A stretch of 32,000 nucleotides of DNA from Candidatus Thorarchaeota archaeon (lineage in GTDB: Archaea; Asgardarchaeota; Heimdallarchaeia; Hodarchaeales; Hodarchaeaceae). The notes beneath the pieces are model-generated. The model had not been told where the DNA came from and ran no database searches. It saw nothing but the letters and a program-made list of their open reading frames with translations. Made by a program: the position numbers and the translations under genes. The stretch lies in NCBI GenBank assembly GCA_048882505.1, contig JBHLRO010000002.1, positions 150,001 to 182,000 of the forward strand, given 5' to 3'. This document shows positions 1 through 9,791 of this stretch, piece after piece. Each line of letters starts with the position of its first letter. Within the stretch, counting starts at the first letter, position 1.

Positions 1-704
1 TATGTAGATTCACCTGATATAGCCGAGAAGTATTGACGAAGTGGTTCCTGCAATCCAAAAATAAGTACATTAGGACTCTCCATCGCATTAGGAAGCGGCA
101 GAAACGAGATAACACGGCCTTTTTTTGCCAATTCTGTTGCTGCAAATACGTCACGAGGATCTTGAGGATTCACGAATACTATATTGGAGGCCACTTGATG
201 GATACCAAACTGCAGATCATGGGCAACCGCAGTTAGAATAACAAGAGCGGTTAGAATTCCTTCTGATGTACGAGGGATAACGACATGAGCTTCTCGCGGA
301 GCTGAAAAAATCTGAAAAAAGCAGTCTAATTGGCGGTTTTGGGCATCAATAATCTCTCCAGACAGGAATTCAGTTAACATTTGTAAAATAATGTTCATAA
401 GGGGGATAATTTGACGTGCACTGCGATCGATGGGAATAAGAACAGTTGCTACAAGACTCTTATCCTGTGAGAATAGGAATATCATACGATGGTTTGAAAA
501 TCGGATGAAATGTACCTGTTCTCCTTCTGCGATCCTTTGTGAAAATAAATCGAGAGCCTGGGTCATTTGGGCACTTATTTTCGAGTTCTGAGTCAATTGC
601 CCATCCCCAGAACTGAATATGATGCGAGGGGAACCGCCGCTTTGATGGATCACGAGTATGTCGTTGAAATTGGGAAGTGCTGGTACGCTCTCCGAGTTTG
701 GCAA
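1..704 (-). CDS. Partial gene (runs off the left edge): N-terminal longin-like domain followed by a possible DENN-core-like alpha/beta domain
   Basis: Not in the ORF track because it has no stop inside the window. My translation shows an open minus frame from TTG 704 (alt. GTG 713; upstream in-frame TAA at 722-720) to base 1, 234 codons: LPNSESVPALPNFNDILVIHQSGGSPRIIFSSGD...ISAQMTQALDLFSQRIAEGEQVHFIRFSNHRMIFLFSQDKSLVATVLIP...IIPLMNIILQMLTEFL...FFQIFSAPREAHVVIPRTSEGILTALVILTAVA...NVLIFGL. SD-like GGAGTGA lies 5 nt before the TTG. The CDS is well supported; the domain calls are pattern-based. Confidence 0.8.
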   Translation of the reverse strand, partial: MPNSESVPALPNFNDILVIHQSGGSPRIIFSSGDGQLTQNSKISAQMTQALDLFSQRIAEGEQVHFIRFSNHRMIFLFSQDKSLVATVLIPIDRSARQIIPLMNIILQMLTEFLSGEIIDAQNRQLDCFFQIFSAPREAHVVIPRTSEGILTALVILTAVAHDLQFGIHQVASNIVFVNPQDPRDVFAATELAKKGRVISFLPLPNAMESPNVLIFGLQEPLRQYFSAISGEST

Positions 705-851
705 GAAAGTCACTCCGCGTTATTTACGAAGAATCCTAATTACTTAATATATGCAACTCATCACTCTATATCATTCATCATTATCTTTAATAAGTTTCAG
801 GTATTAAATACACCTCATCACTCAGGGCTCTGCAAGGGGTTGGCAATATCT

Positions 852-1523
852 TTAGTAAATTTCAGAGAGCCTCTCGAATACCCTTTGAGGGTTAAATCCG
901 CCACGACGAATCACCACGGGATTGGTGGGATTACTAAGATCTATGATGGTCGAGGGTTTATTCGGAGGAAGGTGTCCTGCGTCAATCGTTAACGGGATGT
1001 CTTCGGGTGAGAAATCCTGGTACACGCCTTCAAGGTTATAATTTACTGGTGCCCCTGTTTTATTTGCAGATGTTCCAATGATAGGACATCCTGCCTTCTG
1101 GATGATTTTCACAAGAACTTCATAGGATGGAACACGAAATGCGATTCTAAGGGGATCGTTTATGTTGAGAAGGGGAGAAATCTCCTCTTTCTGACATTTT
1201 AAAATCAGAGTAGGACTCGATTCGGAGAGTTGCCAAATTTCATGTAAGAAAGTATAGAATTGCGGGTCTGCATCGATATATTCCGGGATCATCTCTTTTG
1301 AAATCAGAAGACTCAAAGGCAAATCCAACGGACGCTCTTTAAGACGGAAGATACGGTATACATTATCACTATTCCACTTTAGCCCGCAGCACCCCAGACC
1401 ATAGCAAGTATCCGTTGGAAAAACCGCAATTACTCCTTTCCTCAAGGCCTCGGATGCTAAAGATACAATCTGCGGATTTGTTATTGCAATTCTTATGGGA
1501 AAGTTTCCCAATGCCAAAAGCAA
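852..1523 (-). CDS. tsaC: L-threonylcarbamoyladenylate synthase (Sua5/YrdC/TsaC), short form without the Sua5 C-terminal domain
   Basis: Motifs VFPTDTCYGLG, IFRLKERP, PLSLLI, IAFRVP, PIIGTSANKTG, PSTIIDL; TTG start with AGGTGA just upstream. Confidence 0.93.
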   Translation of the reverse strand: MLLALGNFPIRIAITNPQIVSLASEALRKGVIAVFPTDTCYGLGCCGLKWNSDNVYRIFRLKERPLDLPLSLLISKEMIPEYIDADPQFYTFLHEIWQLSESSPTLILKCQKEEISPLLNINDPLRIAFRVPSYEVLVKIIQKAGCPIIGTSANKTGAPVNYNLEGVYQDFSPEDIPLTIDAGHLPPNKPSTIIDLSNPTNPVVIRRGGFNPQRVFERLSEIY

Positions 1524-1567: not shown

Positions 1568-2320
1568 TTAAGCTTGTTGCTTCATCATTAAAACAATGAT
1601 ATCCCGAATGAGGCCTTCTACAGGTTTGATTACGCGAGAAACGCTCGCCGGTCTATATTCCTTTTTCAATTTGCCATCAACATCAACAATCTTGGTACGA
1701 TCTCCTGTAGAGAGAAGGACCTTTAGATCATCACGAGCTTCAAGGCAAGAAACTTCAACCATTCTAGCCGCCGCGTCACGAAGGTTTGCCGCCACACCTG
1801 ATTCGCTTAGTAATTTTCCCACCTCTAACGCAGAAATCCGTTGTTCTCTTGGTAAATCCATCTTGTTCAAAAGCAACTGAAAAGGAAGGACTCCATTGGA
1901 AAGCTTATCCCCAGCTAGATCATTAATCTCTTTCAAAGCATGTTTATTCTCTTCCCATCGTGACTTCTCCGAGTCAATGACCACAACAAGACCATGCGCA
2001 CCTCGTAACACGACCTTGCGTTGGCCTGAATGTCTTTCTTGTCCCGGTACGGTGAAAAGATGATACTTTATGATGGGAAGCCCTGCTGTGGTTCGACCAA
2101 GTCCAAAGATCGCTTGATCAAAGAATAAAGTTCGTCCTGTTGGATCCTCCAGCTTTAAGAACTTATAAACATTCTCTGGATCTTCAAGACTTTTTAATAC
2201 CTTGGTGATGGTCAGTGCTGTCGTCTTTCCTGCAAGAGTAGGACCCCAGAAAACGATCTTGACCGTTGGAACACCTTGATGGTCTCTCTTAACCACTTCA
2301 AACTCAGTTTTTACCTGCAT
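1568..2320 (-). CDS. MglA-type small GTPase
   Basis: KIVFWGPTLAGKTT (G1), RTLFFD, YHLFTVPGQ (G3), RKVVLRGAHGLVVVIDS, LLNKMDLP (G4). These follow the MglA signature KIVYYGP.L.GKTT / RTLFFD / HLYTVPGQ / RKLILKG / NKRDLP. Confidence 0.88.
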   Translation of the reverse strand: MQVKTEFEVVKRDHQGVPTVKIVFWGPTLAGKTTALTITKVLKSLEDPENVYKFLKLEDPTGRTLFFDQAIFGLGRTTAGLPIIKYHLFTVPGQERHSGQRKVVLRGAHGLVVVIDSEKSRWEENKHALKEINDLAGDKLSNGVLPFQLLLNKMDLPREQRISALEVGKLLSESGVAANLRDAAARMVEVSCLEARDDLKVLLSTGDRTKIVDVDGKLKKEYRPASVSRVIKPVEGLIRDIIVLMMKQQA

Positions 2321-2398
2321 AAGTAAATCTATTCTCCTAATTCGGGGCTTTGGATGGGCTATGGGTGTGAATTCGGGTTTGAGATGCGTTATTAAGGG

Positions 2399-2929
2399 TC
2401 ATCCAGTCTTTTTTTTGGACAAGATAGCTTGTGTTAGGCCGATAAAGATCTTGTCAATCTCTTCCCCTCCTTCCTTTGCCGACGTTTCATAATAAACCAT
2501 TTCGTGAGTTTTTGCAACCTCCACAGCATCTTCCATGGAGATTTTGCGATCTGGAAGGTCTTTCTTATTGCCAGCTAAAGCAACAGGAATCGAAGGATCA
2601 GGAATGTGCTTCCGAAATTCCGCAAGCCAGTCAGGAATCGCATCAAATGTCTTTTTATCATCAAGGGCGAACATTATGAGGCAAGCAGATGCACCACGGT
2701 AATAACTGGGGCGTAACTTACCAAAAAACTCTTGTCCCGCAGTGTCTACGAGAATGAGCTTGATTGAATTGTTATCAACTTGAATCTTCTTAGTAGTGAT
2801 GTCTACACCGAGCGTGGGGAGATAATTAGCCTCAAACTTGCCCTCAGCAAAGCGGCGGATTAACGAGGTCTTACCGACGCTGCCTGAACCGATGGCACAG
2901 ATCTTGAGCAAATATTCGTTTTCTTGCAC
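2399..2929 (-). CDS. Rab-like Ras-superfamily small GTPase
   Basis: G1 GSGSVGKT, G2 YLPTLGVD, G3 DTAGQ, YYRGA, G4 GNKKD, G5 ETSAK. The GTG at 2929 is preferred over the track's TTG at 2965, which overlaps the upstream stop. C-terminus KKTG has no Cys. Confidence 0.95.
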   Translation of the reverse strand: MQENEYLLKICAIGSGSVGKTSLIRRFAEGKFEANYLPTLGVDITTKKIQVDNNSIKLILVDTAGQEFFGKLRPSYYRGASACLIMFALDDKKTFDAIPDWLAEFRKHIPDPSIPVALAGNKKDLPDRKISMEDAVEVAKTHEMVYYETSAKEGGEEIDKIFIGLTQAILSKKKTG

Positions 2930-2954
2930 GATCAAAGACTTCCAAAGATTATAC

Positions 2955-3905
2955 TTAGAGTCCAAGCTTCGAAAGATCCTGGAGGGAAGCCCTCATATCT
3001 TCAATAAATTCATCACGCTCTGATCGCGTTTTTTGTCTGAGCATTTCTATGAAAAGTACTCGTCCTTTCTCCATGAAGAGTCTAACTTGGTATTGATCTG
3101 CAGGAAAAATCCCAGCGGGTAGATCGTCCATTGGCTCTAATTTAACGACCTCTTTCGCAAATAGTTTCAGGTGTTCTTTTATTGCGGAATAGACGGTGTC
3201 CCCTATGATCACAATCTCCCTTTCCATGTTCGGAGGTACTTCAATATCTCTTAATTTAGCAGTAACATCCTCAATAGAGGTAGGTGCAGCCTTGACGACC
3301 CGCGTTACCTCAACCTCGGTTTGGGTGGGTTTCGCACGAACTGTTGGAACGGGGCTAGGTCTGGCCTCAGGTTTTGGTCTAGAATGAATTGTAGGTTTAG
3401 GACGAGTTGACGGGGCAGGACTAGACCGAGCTATTGGTGCAGGTTTTGGTTGAGGAATCGCCGCAGATCGTGGGGTGGAGGATGGAGCAGGCTTCGGCCG
3501 AGCCGAAGGAGCAGGACGGGGAGTCGCAGTCGGGGTGGAAATAGTAGCCGCGGTCGAAGTTTGCTCTGGTACCGTAGATTTTGCCTCTGACTGTGGTGCG
3601 CTTTCCCCAAATAATGATAGGAAATCTGATCCCTCTAAACCAGGATCTAGTGATTCAATACGATAAACCATCCCATATTCCACTTGCCTTAGGTTTTGGG
3701 CGGCCTTGGCGCTAATAAATTTCCTACGAACTGGTGCTTGTTCCCCTTTCCAAATAAAAATCCGTCTTGCATTCTCATCAACGACTAGAAACACATTATC
3801 ATTTTTCAAATCTGCATATGATGAGATTTCGGATGGTTCTAAACTCCCATCGTCGGTAACAGTAAATTTCTTTATATTTTCGGAAGACCCGCTCAACAGT
3901 AACAA
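2955..3905 (-). CDS. Single-domain gelsolin-like protein with a Pro-rich linker and an unassigned C-terminal domain
   Basis: LKNDNVFLVVDENARRIFIWKGEQAPVRRKFISAKAAQNL fits the gelsolin-repeat core (LxxxDxF.LD...I(F/Y).W.G....EK..A...A..L). About 100 aa rich in P/S/T/A/R follow, then a ~105-aa beta-rich domain and a terminal helix. Confidence 0.85.
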   Translation of the reverse strand: MLLLSGSSENIKKFTVTDDGSLEPSEISSYADLKNDNVFLVVDENARRIFIWKGEQAPVRRKFISAKAAQNLRQVEYGMVYRIESLDPGLEGSDFLSLFGESAPQSEAKSTVPEQTSTAATISTPTATPRPAPSARPKPAPSSTPRSAAIPQPKPAPIARSSPAPSTRPKPTIHSRPKPEARPSPVPTVRAKPTQTEVEVTRVVKAAPTSIEDVTAKLRDIEVPPNMEREIVIIGDTVYSAIKEHLKLFAKEVVKLEPMDDLPAGIFPADQYQVRLFMEKGRVLFIEMLRQKTRSERDEFIEDMRASLQDLSKLGL

Positions 3906-3957: not shown

Positions 3958-3965
3958 TTATATAA
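3958..3965. promoter_or_regulatory. Palindromic TATA box TTATATAA in the 94-bp divergent gap between the gelsolin unit and the Get4-like gene
   Basis: TTATATAA reads the same on both strands; 34 nt before ATG 4000 and 52 nt before TTG 3905, in an AT-rich gap. Confidence 0.5.
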
Positions 3966-3999
3966 ATTCGTTTTTGAATTCAATTCATTGTGAAAAACT

Positions 4000-4821
4000 A
4001 TGAGGCAAAACATTTGGGTTGAACGCGGACTAGAGGCCCTCCGACAAGGCCAATGGTTTGATGGTTTGCAGATGATTCAAGGGGCAGTTGAGCGGGCTGG
4101 TCGTCAAGACCAATCCGATGTAGTGGAACAGATTATTAACCAAATACTTCCCATTTTCCCAGAAGATTGGAATACATTGGTGTCTGAGTTAGTGCGCGAG
4201 ATTCTTACTCAAATTCGGGTTAGAAAATCCCAATTAGAATGGATTCGATTAATCCCCTTGATTTTTTCAGTATTAAGGAAAATCTCCCACGAACCCTGTG
4301 TTCATTTGGCAAGAAACCAGATTGTTATGGACGCTGGATTTCAAAATAACGATTTCCTCTTAAATCTGGAAGGAGTGATTGCCGAGGAAAAAAAAGCATT
4401 CCTCTTGGGTGACCTCTATTATTGTATCGCTGGGCTTTTTTCGAAAAAAAAAGATTACGTACGGTGTTATGAGGCCTTACAGAACTGGAAAGAGCATGGC
4501 CTAGTAACACCACATCTTGGAACTTATTTATTGCTGGCCGAGGTAAATGCCTATGAAATCGAAGAATGCACAAACTATATGGTTGCACCACAGAGCGAAG
4601 TTGACGAAGAGGCAGAAGATTATGCGATTCTAGGAGAAAGAATATGCCGTGCTGTCGAACTGACTGATCAGGTGGAGTTCAATAATATAATGTTCGAATT
4701 CAAGGAGCTAATCAACTCGGACGGGTTACTAAGAACACTATGTGACGGAATTAATGGAATATTGCATCCAACAAAAGGCTCCGGTCTTTTAGGATCGTTA
4801 TTTGGAAGCCGAGATAGCTGA
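4000..4821 (+). CDS. All-helical TPR-like protein, candidate Get4/TRC35 homolog
   Basis: 273-aa ORF with three segments resembling human GET4 as I remember it (see findings). The CDS is confident; the family call is untested. Confidence 0.6.
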   Translation: MRQNIWVERGLEALRQGQWFDGLQMIQGAVERAGRQDQSDVVEQIINQILPIFPEDWNTLVSELVREILTQIRVRKSQLEWIRLIPLIFSVLRKISHEPCVHLARNQIVMDAGFQNNDFLLNLEGVIAEEKKAFLLGDLYYCIAGLFSKKKDYVRCYEALQNWKEHGLVTPHLGTYLLLAEVNAYEIEECTNYMVAPQSEVDEEAEDYAILGERICRAVELTDQVEFNNIMFEFKELINSDGLLRTLCDGINGILHPTKGSGLLGSLFGSRDS

Positions 4822-5325
4822 GAGGATCTGTTGAACCGCCGCCATACCTGTTTCTGCTGTCATGATTTTTCTTCCTTCTCTCTCATCAATATAGCCTCTT
4901 TCTCCAATTTCTCTGCTCCACCCATTAATAGACGTAATACAAACCATGGGTTTATGATTTATCCACGAATAAGCAATTTCAGTAAGGGTTCCGGCTTGGC
5001 CTCCCACAGCTATGACCCCATCAGAAGCTAATGGTACCAAGGAGTTTCTTGTCCAGTGAAGAAAGGTGGGGATACGAATGGTCAAATACGGGTTTACCTC
5101 GGGATCTATCATCACATCAGTAGGGAGGATACCAACTGTTATTCCATTGTTCTCGAAAGCTCCCTTACAAGCAGCCTCCATAACCCCTCCTCGACCTCCA
5201 CACACCAAAATGGCGTTAGCTCGGGCTATTTCCTGACCGATCTCATAAGCAATTTCATACTGCCGTTCAGATCGAATCTGGGAATCACCGATAATGCCGA
5301 TTTGTACCTGATTTCTGATTTTCAT
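4798..5325 (-). CDS. LOG/TIGR00725-family Rossmann-fold nucleotide-binding protein
   Basis: IGIIG, LVCGGRGGVMEAACKGA, TVGILP, RN, DGVIAVGGQAGTLTEI. Confidence 0.88.
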   Translation of the reverse strand: MKIRNQVQIGIIGDSQIRSERQYEIAYEIGQEIARANAILVCGGRGGVMEAACKGAFENNGITVGILPTDVMIDPEVNPYLTIRIPTFLHWTRNSLVPLASDGVIAVGGQAGTLTEIAYSWINHKPMVCITSINGWSREIGERGYIDEREGRKIMTAETGMAAVQQILSAISASK

Positions 5326-5899
5326 CTTTATTCCCTTCTATGTACTTTTTCTTTCCATTAAGAGATGGTAGGATCTGGTGTTGGGCTCCGAAAAACCTCT
5401 GTTGAAGAAAATGCGGCATTAAATGGTCCAAGAACACCGCAAGTGCACTTACTTCTGAATGTGGTTGATTTCCAACCCCAATATTCCAGGTCGCTAGCTG
5501 AAATACTTTGCCAGGGATTTTTTTTCCTCCAACAACGATCAAGAGTTTTGTCCGTTGAAGTGGGTCCTTTTGCAGGCGATGAAATGATTCGGATTGCTCA
5601 AAAGTAAGGAGATTTTCACCATACATTGTCAAATGCATTATATTTCCTCCGGAATCTTTCCATTCTGTTAATATCATATTCCAATCTTCGAACGGCCTTT
5701 TGTCAAGTTTAAATTCACCTCCCCATTGGTTGACTACCTTATCAATGGTATGATCAAGGGTGGAATCTTCGTCTCCGGCGATTATAATCCGAGACGCCCC
5801 AAATGCTCGAGCAACCAGAATCAAATGACTGGTGACCCGCCTATCCCGCTCCCGTCGGTGGCCAATTCTCAGAACTGTTACCAAAAAGGAGGACTCCAT
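5285..5899 (-). CDS. trm56: tRNA (cytidine(56)-2'-O)-methyltransferase (archaeal SPOUT)
   Basis: LRIGHRRERDRRVTSHLILVARAFGA, WGG.F, HLTMYG, VVGGKKIP, WNIGVGNQPHSEVSALAVFLD. Confidence 0.95.
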   Translation of the reverse strand: MESSFLVTVLRIGHRRERDRRVTSHLILVARAFGASRIIIAGDEDSTLDHTIDKVVNQWGGEFKLDKRPFEDWNMILTEWKDSGGNIMHLTMYGENLLTFEQSESFHRLQKDPLQRTKLLIVVGGKKIPGKVFQLATWNIGVGNQPHSEVSALAVFLDHLMPHFLQQRFFGAQHQILPSLNGKKKYIEGNKDENQKSGTNRHYR

Positions 5900-5911: not shown

Positions 5912-6481
5912 TCAAGCGGACGCAAGTACTGCTCGAATGCTTGTAGCCAGCTTGGCGAAACTTTCATCTACATTCGCCCCTGTCTTAGCTGAAGTTTCCA
6001 AATAAGGTATTTCATAATGCATATTGAACTGGTTTTTCAGATCAGCTATGAACCCTTCGACTTCTTCCTGCGTTACATAATCTTTAGCTTCTCCACTATC
6101 CCTCAGGTCTACTTTATTTCCCAGGACTGCGATAGGCATCGCCCCCCGGCCACTGTTCCTGAATAATTCATCGATCCAATTTGTTAAGTTGGTAAATGAA
6201 TCTCTTCGGGTTATGTCAAACACCAGTAATCCCCCGTGCGATCCTTTATAGTATAATTCTCTAACTGAATTGAAACGGGGTTGCCCTGCCAGATCCCAGA
6301 TTTGAAATTTGACTGTCCGTGTATCTACTCCATCTTGGATAACCGCTTTTTTAACGGCAAAATCCGCACCAATAGTCATCACATAGCCAGAGGAAAATTG
6401 TTTTCCCAGATATCGTTCGCGTAAGGCGGTTTTACCGACAGCACCGTCTCCTAATAGACATATTTTCATAAGCAGGGTCAT
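5912..6481 (-). CDS. Rab-like Ras-superfamily small GTPase
   Basis: G1 GDGAVGKT, TIGADF, KFQIWDLAGQPRF, YYKGS, LVFDIT, G4 GNKVD, G5 ETSAK. Start placed at ATG 6481 because GGTGA (6490-6486) lies 4 nt upstream. No C-terminal Cys. Confidence 0.95.
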   Translation of the reverse strand: MTLLMKICLLGDGAVGKTALRERYLGKQFSSGYVMTIGADFAVKKAVIQDGVDTRTVKFQIWDLAGQPRFNSVRELYYKGSHGGLLVFDITRRDSFTNLTNWIDELFRNSGRGAMPIAVLGNKVDLRDSGEAKDYVTQEEVEGFIADLKNQFNMHYEIPYLETSAKTGANVDESFAKLATSIRAVLASA

Positions 6482-6726
6482 TTTTTCACCAGATTGGTAG
6501 TGCAAGTGCTATGTTTCTAATAACATCTAGTTATTCAACCTACATGCCGTTCTCTGAACGCTAACATATAAAGACTTCCGAACCGCAAGCTTAATGTCCC
6601 CTCGTCTTTTGGTGAAGCTATGAGGCATCCTCTCGCAAACGAGATTGGTGGTGTTTTCTTGAAAAAAGCCAGTACCCATGCCTCTTAATCCATTGTTTTT
6701 TCGATTTCTGACAATTTTATTAAGAA

Positions 6727-9030
6727 TTGGTGTTCCATTTGGCCGGTTTGAAGTCATCCTCTGATGCAATGAAAGAAGTTGTTGAATTACTCGGATTATC
6801 CGAGGATCAAACAAAGATTTACTTTTCTGTACTCTCGCTAGGTGCGGCTACGCTAGGCCAGATCAGCTTACTATCTGGACTTGATTATCTAAAAACTCAG
6901 GAGGCGCTTGAGCTATTGGTGGGGAGTAGCCTGGTGAGACGGATTCCTGGCAAAGTAGGACGATACGTTGCGTTGACCCCATTTTTAAAAGCTTTTTTAC
7001 TTACCTACGATCCCATTACACTGGTGAGTATAAGAAAGGAATCAGCAACTGAGCTTAAAGCTCAAGTGAATCAAATCACGGAACACATGACAAAAGAAAT
7101 CGAAGTGGTAGGCCAAAATACCGATCAATTGGAAAAGGATTTTTTAAAAGGCCTAGAACCTGTTTTGAGTAATTTCGGATCAATTATTGATTCCACGCGC
7201 GGGCTCCTAAATACTACGGAACAACAAATCCGTGCAAGTGCCCAGAAACTTCAATTCACCAGCAATCAACTAGCTTTACGATCACAAAAATTTACTGATG
7301 AGGTGAAAAGGGCCAATATCGAAAAAATAAACCACGTCCCAGAATTGTTTCATCCTTTCATTCCTAAAGTTGATGATGCTCTAAAGACAAGGATCCTTGT
7401 TATTGACCAGGAACTTGATAGGATAATATCAGCTCAAAAGGCCGATCTACAAAATTTACAGACCGACCTTTCAATCAAACTGGGAAAAACATCGGATGAT
7501 ATTGTCAATTTACTCCAAAAAATTGAAGATGACAATAAATCCGAGAAGGAAGGCATACACAAAAAGGCGATAGAAACAACAATATATCTCAATGTTTTAA
7601 AGGAAAATGCAACCAATAATAAGACACACTTCAAAGATATCCGAGATGGCTATAAGAATATCGATACAACGGTCACGGAGTTCTTTAAAGAGCTTGACAC
7701 CAAGCTTATGAAAATGGAGCCTTTGATAGCGAGCGTTTTGGCAGATATACAGAACAGAAAGATGTTTCGGGGGAGAGACGAATTTCTCGATATTTTGACT
7801 AACATCGAAAATACCCGATTATCAATCCAAACAGATCTTAGAGACAATTCCGAACTTTCAGAAAAGATTGATGGCCTTAATCGATTATTAGAAGAGATTG
7901 AGATGAAGATTTTGGATGCCACGGAAAAAGGGCTTACGCAGGTTGAAACCATTCTAACAGAAGAAAGTCAGCTTTTTTCTCGGAAGCTTCAAAAAATGTC
8001 GGTTGAATTGTGTTCAAAGAATCGCCCTAAAATACAAGAAATTTTTGAACAGACTCAGAGGAGTTTAATAACACAGTTAAGGGAAATCGAACAGGTATTG
8101 GATACTAAACATGATTTATTCCTGACCACGCTTCAAGATAAAACCCATAATTTCTCGCAAGAATTAAACACTCTAATAGGCACATTTACAGGTGACTTTC
8201 GAAAGCAGATTGAGAGCCATTTTGAGAAGAGTGGGATATTCGACTCTAAAACCACTGAATTAGGGTGGAGTATTCAGGAACTCGACAATATCACATTCCG
8301 TCAACTTCCTGAGCTTACTAGAGCGTTTTCAGATGTTGATAGCCTTCAGGAATCTTTTGACCGTTATATTTTGGGCTTTGACGCCATATTTTCTCATTTT
8401 ACAGAGAATCAAGTTAATTTTTTTGCTGAGGCACTTGATAAAACCAAAAAATCTCTTGGTTCTCACATCAAAAGGATCGAAAATCAATTAGAGCAAGAAA
8501 TTTCAGCACTTACATTTAGCATACGACAAATGAAGCAAAAGCTAAGCAAAATAATTCAAACCTCCCAATTGACAGATATTTCGGGTATTGATCCCACACT
8601 TCTAAGCACAGATTTGGTCGTAGGAGAGCCCGTCATCATTATGCTTTTACGGGATCTTACTGTTCGTGCAAAAGCGTCTCTTACTATATTGATGCCTAGG
8701 CCCGAGCTTCAGACCCTTATACAAGCTTCAAAGTTACCCTATCGAACGCGAGTGTCAATCATTGGTGATTTTCAAAAAGTGCCACGGTCGACACTGAAGA
8801 AGATTCTGGCGGCTGGAAATACCCGTTTAAAACAACTAGATGGTGTCGATTATTGGGCCTGTATTCGAGATGCTGAGGAAATGCTCATCTGTCCTGAGCC
8901 CAAAGATCCCACGAACGAAGAACTGATAGGAGTGATTTCCACAAATCAAAATTTAGTGGACCTGTTTTCACAGGAAGTGATAACGTATACTACGCGTTCC
9001 CGCGAGATATTGATCCAGGATATTGAATGA
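6727..9030 (+). CDS. TrmB-family winged-HTH protein with a ~520-aa helical/coiled-coil insert and a C-terminal TrmB/PLD-like domain
   Basis: LGLSEDQTKIYFSVLSLGAATLGQISLLSGL...ALELLVGSSLVRRIPGKVGRYVALTP is TrmB HTH-like. A long E/K/Q/L-rich helical middle follows, then RAKASLTILMP...RVSII...WACIRDAEEMLI...GVISTNQNLVDLF. Start uncertain (TTG 6727 or a later ATG). Confidence 0.8.
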   Translation: MVFHLAGLKSSSDAMKEVVELLGLSEDQTKIYFSVLSLGAATLGQISLLSGLDYLKTQEALELLVGSSLVRRIPGKVGRYVALTPFLKAFLLTYDPITLVSIRKESATELKAQVNQITEHMTKEIEVVGQNTDQLEKDFLKGLEPVLSNFGSIIDSTRGLLNTTEQQIRASAQKLQFTSNQLALRSQKFTDEVKRANIEKINHVPELFHPFIPKVDDALKTRILVIDQELDRIISAQKADLQNLQTDLSIKLGKTSDDIVNLLQKIEDDNKSEKEGIHKKAIETTIYLNVLKENATNNKTHFKDIRDGYKNIDTTVTEFFKELDTKLMKMEPLIASVLADIQNRKMFRGRDEFLDILTNIENTRLSIQTDLRDNSELSEKIDGLNRLLEEIEMKILDATEKGLTQVETILTEESQLFSRKLQKMSVELCSKNRPKIQEIFEQTQRSLITQLREIEQVLDTKHDLFLTTLQDKTHNFSQELNTLIGTFTGDFRKQIESHFEKSGIFDSKTTELGWSIQELDNITFRQLPELTRAFSDVDSLQESFDRYILGFDAIFSHFTENQVNFFAEALDKTKKSLGSHIKRIENQLEQEISALTFSIRQMKQKLSKIIQTSQLTDISGIDPTLLSTDLVVGEPVIIMLLRDLTVRAKASLTILMPRPELQTLIQASKLPYRTRVSIIGDFQKVPRSTLKKILAAGNTRLKQLDGVDYWACIRDAEEMLICPEPKDPTNEELIGVISTNQNLVDLFSQEVITYTTRSREILIQDIE

Positions 9031-9038
9031 TTGGCCAA

Positions 9039-9791
9039 TTATTTTATCTGCCTTAGGATATCGCTTATCTCATCTACACTGACTCTTTTGGTATTTAAAA
9101 CCTGAATAGCCCCGTTCTTAGCAGTGAATTCAACATTTCCTTGTGTGTATTCAACGGTATACTTTTCGCCTGTTCTTGAAAGGAAGACATCCCCTAATTT
9201 GTTTAGTGCAACTACAAAACGGCCGACCAATTTTTCCTCGGCACTAAGCCCATATTCAGTTTCAATCGGAGCAATAGCTTCTGGGGTTGTCTCCAATGAG
9301 GACACTCGATCGTCATGAGTATCGTGAGTCAAAAAGGAAGGAACATACTCGAGAGCTGGTTTAGGTGTTTTTTTTGAATAGGTTTCGAGTCCAGTTTCCT
9401 GTTTGGATTCTAGATCGCGATGGCCAGCTCGAGTCTCCAAATCAGGTTCGATATATGCTTCAGTTGGACGTTCGTAAGAATAATGGTGTCCTACCTGCAA
9501 GAGGATGTCGGGAACCGTATCATCCTTCGAAAGGTCAACTGCAAAGTTCATTCCAACCCGTATATCAGAATCTGGTAGCCTGAAACCACTCTTGGCTATG
9601 GAGTGTACATGACGTTCAATGATTCTCTTTGATATGATATTGAAATTATCGGGTATATGAACGGTTATCTTTTCTGAGGGTTCATCAATGATCAAATAGG
9701 CTTCATCTTGAGGGGGTCGCCCTTTACCGCTAGAAATCACGAATTCATCAGAACGCCAAATAGCAGTGACCGTTAAACTTCTCGAACTCAT
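9039..9791 (-). CDS. Hypothetical protein with a degenerate gelsolin-like N-terminal domain, acidic linker and small C-terminal alpha/beta domain
   Basis: Residues 29-70 align without gaps to residues 36-77 of the gelsolin protein at 2955-3905. Confidence 0.55.
   Translation of the reverse strand: MSSRSLTVTAIWRSDEFVISSGKGRPPQDEAYLIIDEPSEKITVHIPDNFNIISKRIIERHVHSIAKSGFRLPDSDIRVGMNFAVDLSKDDTVPDILLQVGHHYSYERPTEAYIEPDLETRAGHRDLESKQETGLETYSKKTPKPALEYVPSFLTHDTHDDRVSSLETTPEAIAPIETEYGLSAEEKLVGRFVVALNKLGDVFLSRTGEKYTVEYTQGNVEFTAKNGAIQVLNTKRVSVDEISDILRQIK

Follow-up and report, generated by a model that had tools for sequence, protein, structure and literature searches.

The gelsolin-GTPase locus

Asgard archaea, among which the Hodarchaeales are the order proposed to be closest to eukaryotes, are known to have profilins and gelsolins, and to our knowledge no upstream signalling to their actin is known; eukaryotic actin has small GTPases as its master regulators. 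Here we analyze a cluster of three genes encoding a gelsolin-domain protein (GelX), a Rab-like GTPase and an MglA-type GTPase, located in a stretch of 32,000 nucleotides (nt; C2:150001-182000, hereafter the window) of a 4.3-Mb genome that is 94.6% complete and whose closest public relatives carry the labels Heimdallarchaeota, Hodarchaeota or Hodarchaeales. From the gene context described below we lean towards reading this cluster as a conserved, probably co-transcribed functional module of Hodarchaeales that would place a GTPase switch over GelX.

The minus strand of the window holds four consecutive open reading frames (ORFs) between positions 852 and 3905, namely GelX, the Rab-like gene, the MglA-like gene and tsaC. 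GelX (2955-3905, minus strand) encodes a 1DGelX-type protein of 316 amino acids (aa), that is a gelsolin domain followed by a linker and a C-terminal domain X, if translation starts at the TTG at 3905; an alternative TTG at 3896 is favoured by comparison with orthologues. After a gap of 25 nt follows the gene for a Rab/Ras-like small GTPase (2399-2929, minus strand; 176 aa from the GTG at 2929; Pfam Ras, E 3.3e-46), and after another 78 nt (2321-2398) the gene for a group-1 MglA-type GTPase of 250 aa (1568-2320, minus strand; E 2.3e-19 to Myxococcus xanthus MglA). The listed ORF of the Rab-like gene starts at a TTG at 2965 and overlaps the GelX stop, and the alignment of orthologues moves the start to GTG 2929. 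A further 44 nt separate the MglA-like gene from a tsaC/Sua5-family gene (852-1523, minus strand; Pfam PF01300, Sua5_yciO_yrdC, E 1.4e-30). A first-pass annotation of this DNA had delimited the same three genes, and its coordinates, common strand and gap sizes all agree with our ORF reading. The identities it had assigned are likewise borne out by PDB matches for the gelsolin-domain protein, by Pfam Ras for the Rab-like GTPase and by M. xanthus MglA for the third gene. Rfam and tRNA scans of the region returned no matches.

Conservation of the gene order

The arrangement of the three genes exceeds chance. Every one of the 20 genomes of the genus that are informative shows this order, as does a single genome from a second Hodarchaeales family. 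The first-pass annotation had named a conserved-neighbourhood analysis as a check on the cluster, and the cluster withstood it: GelX > Rab > MglA was found at 20 of 21 loci from 22 genomes of GTDB genus g1, the contig of the remaining locus ending right after GelX, and a separate set of related loci gave the same picture of gene order. An apparent joint loss of GelX and MglA in genome G065 was dismissed as an assembly artefact, since 100-N scaffold gaps flank tsaC and a 273-aa gene there. Within the genus, the GelX proteins are about 55% identical and the tsaC products 42-50%, whereas the MglA-like orthologues are 80-85% identical, with a mean column identity of 89%.

Most of the conserved synteny lies within this one genus, in which the whole 10-kb region is syntenic, and phylogenetic inertia contributes to it. 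The three genes might accordingly be neighbours by inherited gene order only, with the two GTPases serving membrane, polarity or trafficking roles unrelated to GelX and the trio lying close together whether or not it is co-transcribed. Such an explanation can draw on the content of the syntenic block, which comprises a TrmB-like gene, a second Rab gene, Trm56, an SLOG gene, the 273-aa gene, the cluster itself, tsaC and a 626-aa gene and thus includes housekeeping genes that have no plausible connection to the cluster. It can also draw on genome G079 of family f2, where GelX > Rab is kept and followed by a convergent methyltransferase gene, the MglA orthologue being found on another small contig. 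Finally, every sampled family of Heimdallarchaeia has homologues of the extended MglA (40-47% identical), and in the other families these are encoded away from GelX, Rab and Roadblock, because of which the joined GelX/Rab/MglA context is specific to Hodarchaeales.

What speaks against inheritance as the sole explanation comes first of all from genome G078, also of family f2 (L017/L079), which is more telling than the genomes of genus g1 with their synteny over all of the 10-kb region. Although its flanking genes differ and tsaC is gone, G078 keeps the trio in the order Roadblock > GelX > Rab > MglA, at identities to the proteins of the window of 38% for GelX, 41% for Rab and 66% for MglA. In addition, the junctions within the cluster are much tighter than those to tsaC, and genes for gelsolin+X proteins stand beside Roadblock/LC7 genes independently elsewhere in Asgard archaea, far above chance expectation (see below). 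We therefore consider inherited order alone a fairly unlikely explanation. Judging from these comparisons, GelX and Rab are in our view the most closely linked pair, to which MglA is added as a third gene almost throughout.

Promoter-like elements and probable co-transcription

Co-transcription of GelX, the Rab-like gene and mglA is likely, because the junctions are short and carry conserved Shine-Dalgarno (SD)-like motifs. The locus shows what is expected of an archaeal operon, with genes on the same strand, short gaps, SD-like motifs before the internal genes and an order that is conserved in diverged genomes. Upstream of GelX, a TATA-box-like TTTATATAA (3958-3966, minus strand) in the divergent intergenic region of 94 nt is a candidate promoter of the cluster, and a conserved AAGCTTTATAAAATCG is present about equally far upstream of the GelX start at orthologous loci. 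At the GelX > Rab junction, an SD-like GGAAG (2939-2943, minus strand) can be read 9 nt ahead of the GTG of the Rab-like gene. The orthologues share a conserved TTTGGAGAAC...GTG with a GGAG-type motif 7-9 nt before the GTG, and their gap measures about 15-28 nt at most loci and up to about 30 nt in the distant L017. The 78-nt gap ahead of mglA contains an SD-like AGGAG (2334-2338, minus strand) 13 nt before the ATG, while AGGGAT, AAGGTG or GGAGG precede the ATG of mglA orthologues by 6-10 nt in gaps of 24-61 nt; within the genus, the Rab > MglA gap ranges from 24 to 78 nt.

This second junction also gives room to a different transcript structure, in which the genes would share a function while GelX-Rab formed one unit and an internal promoter expressed mglA, either alone or together with tsaC. 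A TTAATAA just past the Rab stop in the 78-nt gap of the window and a CATTTACAAC that is conserved in many relatives, about -30 from the ATG of mglA, could be parts of such a promoter, and genome G079, which keeps GelX-Rab and loses the adjacency of MglA, would fit as well. In many relatives, however, a promoter would have scant room in gaps of 24-44 nt, and the SD-like motifs ahead of the mglA ATG are placed as for an internal cistron, so that we judge separate transcripts to be improbable.

The first-pass annotation had let the cluster run on to tsaC. The short same-strand gap is indeed present, measuring 44 nt if tsaC starts at the TTG at 1523 and 50-56 nt if it starts at a later TTG, but membership of tsaC in the operon is less well founded: the MglA > tsaC gap in relatives is looser (34-130 nt) and often contains long T-runs, and tsaC is missing from the locus in the second family (G078/L017). 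From this comparison, tsaC looks like a loosely attached neighbour of convenience. The gap between tsaC and the 626-aa gene has its own conserved GAAACTTTAATAA, which is BRE/TATA-like (BRE, B recognition element) and promoter-like. A scan for sigma-70 promoters and hairpin terminators gave the same counts as shuffled sequence, these being bacterial models that are not applicable to archaea.

GelX and its domain X

GelX matched no Pfam family, Gelsolin included, at E ≤ 0.01. Its gelsolin-homology domain, spanning aa 10-101 (3603-3878, minus strand), was recognized by sequence matches to PDB entries and by an AlphaFold model. In a phmmer search of the PDB, aa 12-101 matched Thor/Loki gelsolins of Asgard archaea (7c2h, E 2.3e-5; 7c2f, E 1.4e-4) as well as villin 9jw0 (E 3e-4), with adseverin among the further matches. 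The model, built with 14 homologues, reaches a predicted local distance difference test score (pLDDT) above 90 for aa 10-100 and displays the central sheet and long helix of the gelsolin/cofilin-type fold. It superimposes on Thor ProGel 7c2f with a VIA Z of 15.4 and a root mean square deviation of 1.3 Å over 88 residues. The VIA Z values are 11-13 for adseverin, gelsolin G3, fragmin and villin, and Foldseek returned matches at E ~1e-6. As modelled, the N-terminal part of GelX is a gelsolin fold. Full-length homologues of GelX form about 100 clusters with E values down to 1e-151, nearly all of them from metagenome-assembled genomes of Hodarchaeales/Heimdall archaea.

The gelsolin domain is followed by a linker rich in Pro, Ala, Thr and Ser (aa 105-205; 3291-3593, minus strand), predicted to be disordered from a pLDDT below 50 and from its composition. 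It counts 23 Pro in 102 aa and varies in length and sequence among orthologues. Recruitment of profilin by this linker was considered and discarded, as the linker has no Pro run longer than PP. The host genome encodes one eukaryote-type actin (PF00022, E 7.6e-132) and two other gelsolin-domain proteins (L002, L003), both without domain X and without GTPase neighbours. Gelsolin homology was also considered for the gene at 9039-9791 (minus strand) of the window and was not supported by a profile comparison with the GelX alignment (probability 1.2%).

Domain X makes up the C-terminus of GelX (aa 206-316; 2958-3290, minus strand) and is strongly conserved among orthologues. Folded alone with 28 sequences, it reaches a pLDDT of 79.7 and is predicted as a helix, five strands and a helix. 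Against solved folds, Foldseek found nothing in the PDB below E 0.3, and the best Z value across VIA was 4.8, to Cache/PAS-like sensor modules and under the noise level quoted for the tool; the idea of domain X as a Roadblock-, longin- or profilin-like platform, which we considered, received no support from these fold searches. The domain family is small and restricted to Asgard archaea, with 240 cluster representatives among 1.84 billion proteins, and domain X almost always forms the C-terminal part of a protein of about 300 aa. Named homologues carry Thorarchaeota, Hodarchaeota, Hermodarchaeota or Promethearchaeota labels, and full-length gelsolin+X genes are present across many Asgard families.

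Among these homologues is the C-terminal domain of protein P0163 (304 aa) from Thor SMTZ1-83 (BLASTP E 2e-10, profile E 3.3e-41), whose N-terminal gelsolin domain matches ProGel at E 2.5e-13. P0163 is presumably the published 1DGelX, which comes from the same SMTZ1-83 assembly. GelX has the 1DGelX architecture of a gelsolin domain joined to domain X, and it shares with Thor 1DGelX the N-terminal position of the gelsolin domain, the low-complexity Pro-rich linker, the C-terminal domain X and the length of about 300 aa. The two differ in sequence, with about 28% identity between GelX and P0163 in domain X and gelsolin domains that BLASTP did not align. Domain X itself was modelled as a coiled coil in the Thor 1DGelX paper, in contrast to the helix, five strands and helix of our AlphaFold model. 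In vitro, Thor 1DGelX binds actin with a dissociation constant (Kd) of 7.7 μM and nucleates and severs it independently of calcium (PMC7444086; Akil et al. 2020, PNAS). Its authors proposed a second binding function for the C-terminal part, and in human cells they located 1DGelX fused to green fluorescent protein (GFP) at nuclear-envelope- or endoplasmic-reticulum-like regions, with only weak association to filaments (PMC7444086).

GelX could also be mainly a regulator or adaptor of GTPases, either GTPase-activating protein (GAP)-like or as an effector scaffold, instead of an actin regulator under GTPase control. A gelsolin-like domain of this kind is known from Sec23, a subunit of coat protein complex II (COPII), where it contacts Sar1. 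Sec23/Sec24 gelsolin-like domains are indeed among the structural matches of GelX (2nup, Z 9.0; 3eh1 and 3eh2, Z 6.9), GelX is always encoded with partners from GTPase systems, and the location of the GFP-1DGelX fusion, with its weak association to filaments, would suit such a role. Nevertheless, the domain is far nearer to actin-binding gelsolins, at Z 11-15 and sequence E values of ~1e-5, than to Sec23/24, and the binding and severing of actin by Thor 1DGelX in vitro argue for an action on actin. We thus hold a primary role in GTPase regulation to be very improbable.

The Rab-like and MglA-type GTPases

The best solved relatives of the Rab-like protein are Rab22A (E 8.8e-36), Rab30 and Rab23, all at E values of ~1e-33 to 1e-36, and the G1-G5 motifs of the Ras superfamily are present (GSGSVGKTS, DTAGQE, NKKD, TSAK). 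A C-terminal Cys prenylation motif is absent, the tail AILSKKKTG being polybasic and free of Cys; because of the missing Cys, we call the protein Rab-like and not a bona fide Rab. Of the RabF1-F5 motifs, compared by eye with a motif consensus, LGVDI and YYRGA are present and the others are weak. Like Asgard Rab-like/RasL GTPases such as Thor-Rab (PMC10933270), the protein has a Ras-superfamily G domain nearest to eukaryotic Rabs. The GTPase genes of strain MK-D1 were reported to lie generally outside operons with their regulators (Tran et al. 2024, PMC10933270), whereas the gene described here sits in a conserved cluster.

The MglA-like protein carries both sequence hallmarks of group-1 MglA. 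Its TGRTLFFD aligns with TDRTLFFD of M. xanthus MglA, which provides the intrinsic Arg in switch I, and its TVPGQ, with Thr for Asp in G3 and the catalytic Gln, is identical to the M. xanthus motif; both features are invariant in the orthologues. A second PDB match was Thermus thermophilus MglA (E 1.5e-16). The protein exceeds the solved bacterial MglA chains (195-203 aa) by a C-terminal extension of about 50-60 aa, and a paralogue of this extended MglA, 53% identical, is encoded at C2:215485. Within the extension, aa 225-250 (1568-1640 of the window) are highly conserved and contain the 18-residue segment that is the most amphipathic in the protein, with a hydrophobic moment of 0.65. Going by these sequence properties, the C-terminal end of the extension may be a helix that binds a membrane or a partner.

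In its group-1 hallmarks the protein thus resembles the MglA of the MglA/MglB switch of Myxococcus xanthus and Thermus thermophilus. It is unlike that switch in its 250 aa, its conserved extension, its neighbourhood to a gelsolin and a Rab-like GTPase and the lack of an adjacent MglB/Roadblock gene. The GTP-bound MglA of Myxococcus connects to MreB, a homologue of actin. MglA- and Rag-type GTPases are known to pair with Roadblock/LC7 dimers, which serve as GAPs or as guanine nucleotide exchange factors (GEFs). Elsewhere in the genome we observed a canonical-looking Roadblock-MglA-Roadblock cluster (C18:14132-16191), the MglA of which measures about 200 aa and is 45% identical to the MglA-like protein of the window.

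Gelsolin+X and Roadblock/LC7 genes across Asgard archaea

We compared 20 distant gelsolin+X loci, many of them from one family and together from at least four or five GTDB families, which are not phylogenetically independent. A Roadblock/LC7 homologue lies directly downstream on the same strand at 11 of the 20 and within 1 kb at 15. The immediate arrangement, with a Roadblock/LC7 gene of about 130 aa directly after the gelsolin+X gene, is found at L062-L066, L068, L069, L071-L073 and L080, and the paralogue loci L026-L028 (Hodarchaeota/Promethearchaeota) have a Roadblock gene downstream likewise. In Thor SMTZ1-83 (L111:4001-5341), a 129-aa gene with a Pfam Robl_LC7 match comes 36 nt after the P0163 gene. 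The chance expectation, at about 12 Roadblock genes per 4.3-Mb genome, is well below 1% per neighbour. Since Roadblock/LC7 is the class of proteins regulating MglA, the gelsolin+X family is repeatedly tied by its gene context to small-GTPase machinery, the neighbour being Roadblock in most lineages and a pair of GTPases in Hodarchaeales.

In the open-access literature we found no description of the gelsolin-Rab-MglA neighbourhood or of the pairing of gelsolin+X with Roadblock. The conserved coupling between two GTPases and a 1DGelX-type gelsolin, like that between its family and Roadblock, therefore appears undescribed, the protein families themselves being known. The Thor paper does not discuss gene context, and the Thor gene differs from GelX in being followed by a Roadblock gene instead of two GTPase genes. 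Among the conserved Asgard neighbourhoods of eukaryotic signature proteins, the ESCRT genes have been called 'perhaps most notable', and a predicted operon of a LAMTOR1-like Roadblock protein, a Rab-like GTPase and a DENN protein has been reported (Liu et al., 10.1101/2020.10.19.343400). Like the present cluster, that operon is a conserved Asgard neighbourhood of a small GTPase with putative regulators; unlike it, it has neither a gelsolin nor an MglA. The G078 locus, by comparison, joins Roadblock, GelX, Rab and MglA genes with a homologue of the 626-aa gene.

Near the gelsolin+X paralogue of L026, two unusual fusion proteins are encoded (L026:1309-4262). One of 281 aa has a C-terminal GTPase domain and an N-terminal part that by eye looks longin/Roadblock-like. 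In the second, of 612 aa, a Rab-like GTPase is fused to a long C-terminal domain resembling M20-family peptidases by eye.

A possible GTPase switch over GelX

In the module that we favour, one or both GTPases would be a nucleotide-dependent switch on where or when GelX acts on the single actin of the cell. Docking would probably proceed through domain X, which is a candidate docking module because it travels with GTPase and Roadblock neighbours. In other Asgard lineages, the Roadblock/LC7 protein encoded beside gelsolin+X could be the GTPase-regulating platform of an equivalent module. Membrane association might be provided by the amphipathic C-terminal segment of MglA or by the polybasic tail of the Rab-like protein, which is speculation. 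Co-transcription, physical interaction and action on actin in the host organism are what we infer from the observations above.

Several observations weigh against a switch of this kind. Besides the genus-wide synteny, the lost MglA adjacency in G079, the separate position of the extended MglA in other Heimdallarchaeia families and the possible internal promoter ahead of mglA, no cognate MglB (Roadblock/LC7) is encoded near the cluster, the nearest of 12 PF03259 matches in the genome being 77 kb off, and the Foldseek PDB and VIA-wide searches revealed no recognizable GTPase-binding fold in domain X. A predicted complex of the Rab-like protein, the MglA-like protein and domain X, run without controls, gave an ipSAE of 0.00 and a mark of 0.32 and counts neither for nor against it.

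The concept of a GTPase switch upstream of actin-remodelling proteins is shared with the eukaryotic control by Rho/Rac/Cdc42 and Arf. The cluster differs from these systems in having no Rho-family member and no known effector domain, and the link it suggests is one of gene context alone. In L. ossiferum, an ARF GTPase and gelsolins co-precipitate with Lokiactin, and the authors expect a more intricate regulation (PMC13716822, 2026 crawling-motility paper). An axis in Asgard archaea that leads directly from small GTPases to the severing of actin, is older than Rho GTPases and has the domain X of the 1DGelX family docking onto a GTPase/Roadblock switch, is a tentative and rather doubtful extension of the module reading. 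The switch would consist of the Rab-like and MglA-type GTPases in Hodarchaeales and of a Roadblock platform in Thorarchaeota and others. Along such an axis, the nucleotide state would set the sites of Lokiactin cutting and nucleation and through them protrusion dynamics and crawling.

The cluster and the Roadblock pairing name specific proteins that are testable as recombinants and in the cultured Hodarchaeales strains HC1 and SC1 (10.1101/2025.02.26.640444). If a GTPase switch over GelX proved true, GTPase control of actin would predate eukaryogenesis, and the domain X of 1DGelX would gain a role.

Neighbouring genes

Downstream of tsaC, the window contains the 5' part of the conserved 626-aa gene (1-713, minus strand), which is complete at L030:5833-7713. 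Considered as a longin/DENN or tri-longin protein, its product had no Pfam match and, searched with a 13-sequence profile, no PDB sequence match. Weak Atlas leads point to Fuz_longin/Mon1 at TM-scores of 0.25-0.31 on a poor model, by which the product is possibly a longin-type GTPase regulator (Fuz_longin/Mon1, tri-longin Rab-GEF type). In G078, the homologue of the 626-aa gene is located 3.7 kb downstream of MglA.

On the other side of the cluster, a second Rab-like GTPase gene (5912-6505; Pfam Ras, E 1.9e-44) is followed by aTrm56 (5285-5899) and an SLOG-family gene (4798-5325), all on the minus strand, and the genomes that keep the GelX cluster keep this order as well. The plus strand at the margin of the syntenic block encodes a conserved 767-aa protein (6727-9030; 39-44% identity) with an N-terminal TrmB-type winged helix, the long remainder of which gives a weak Apolipoprotein-type match and appears coiled-coil-like by eye.

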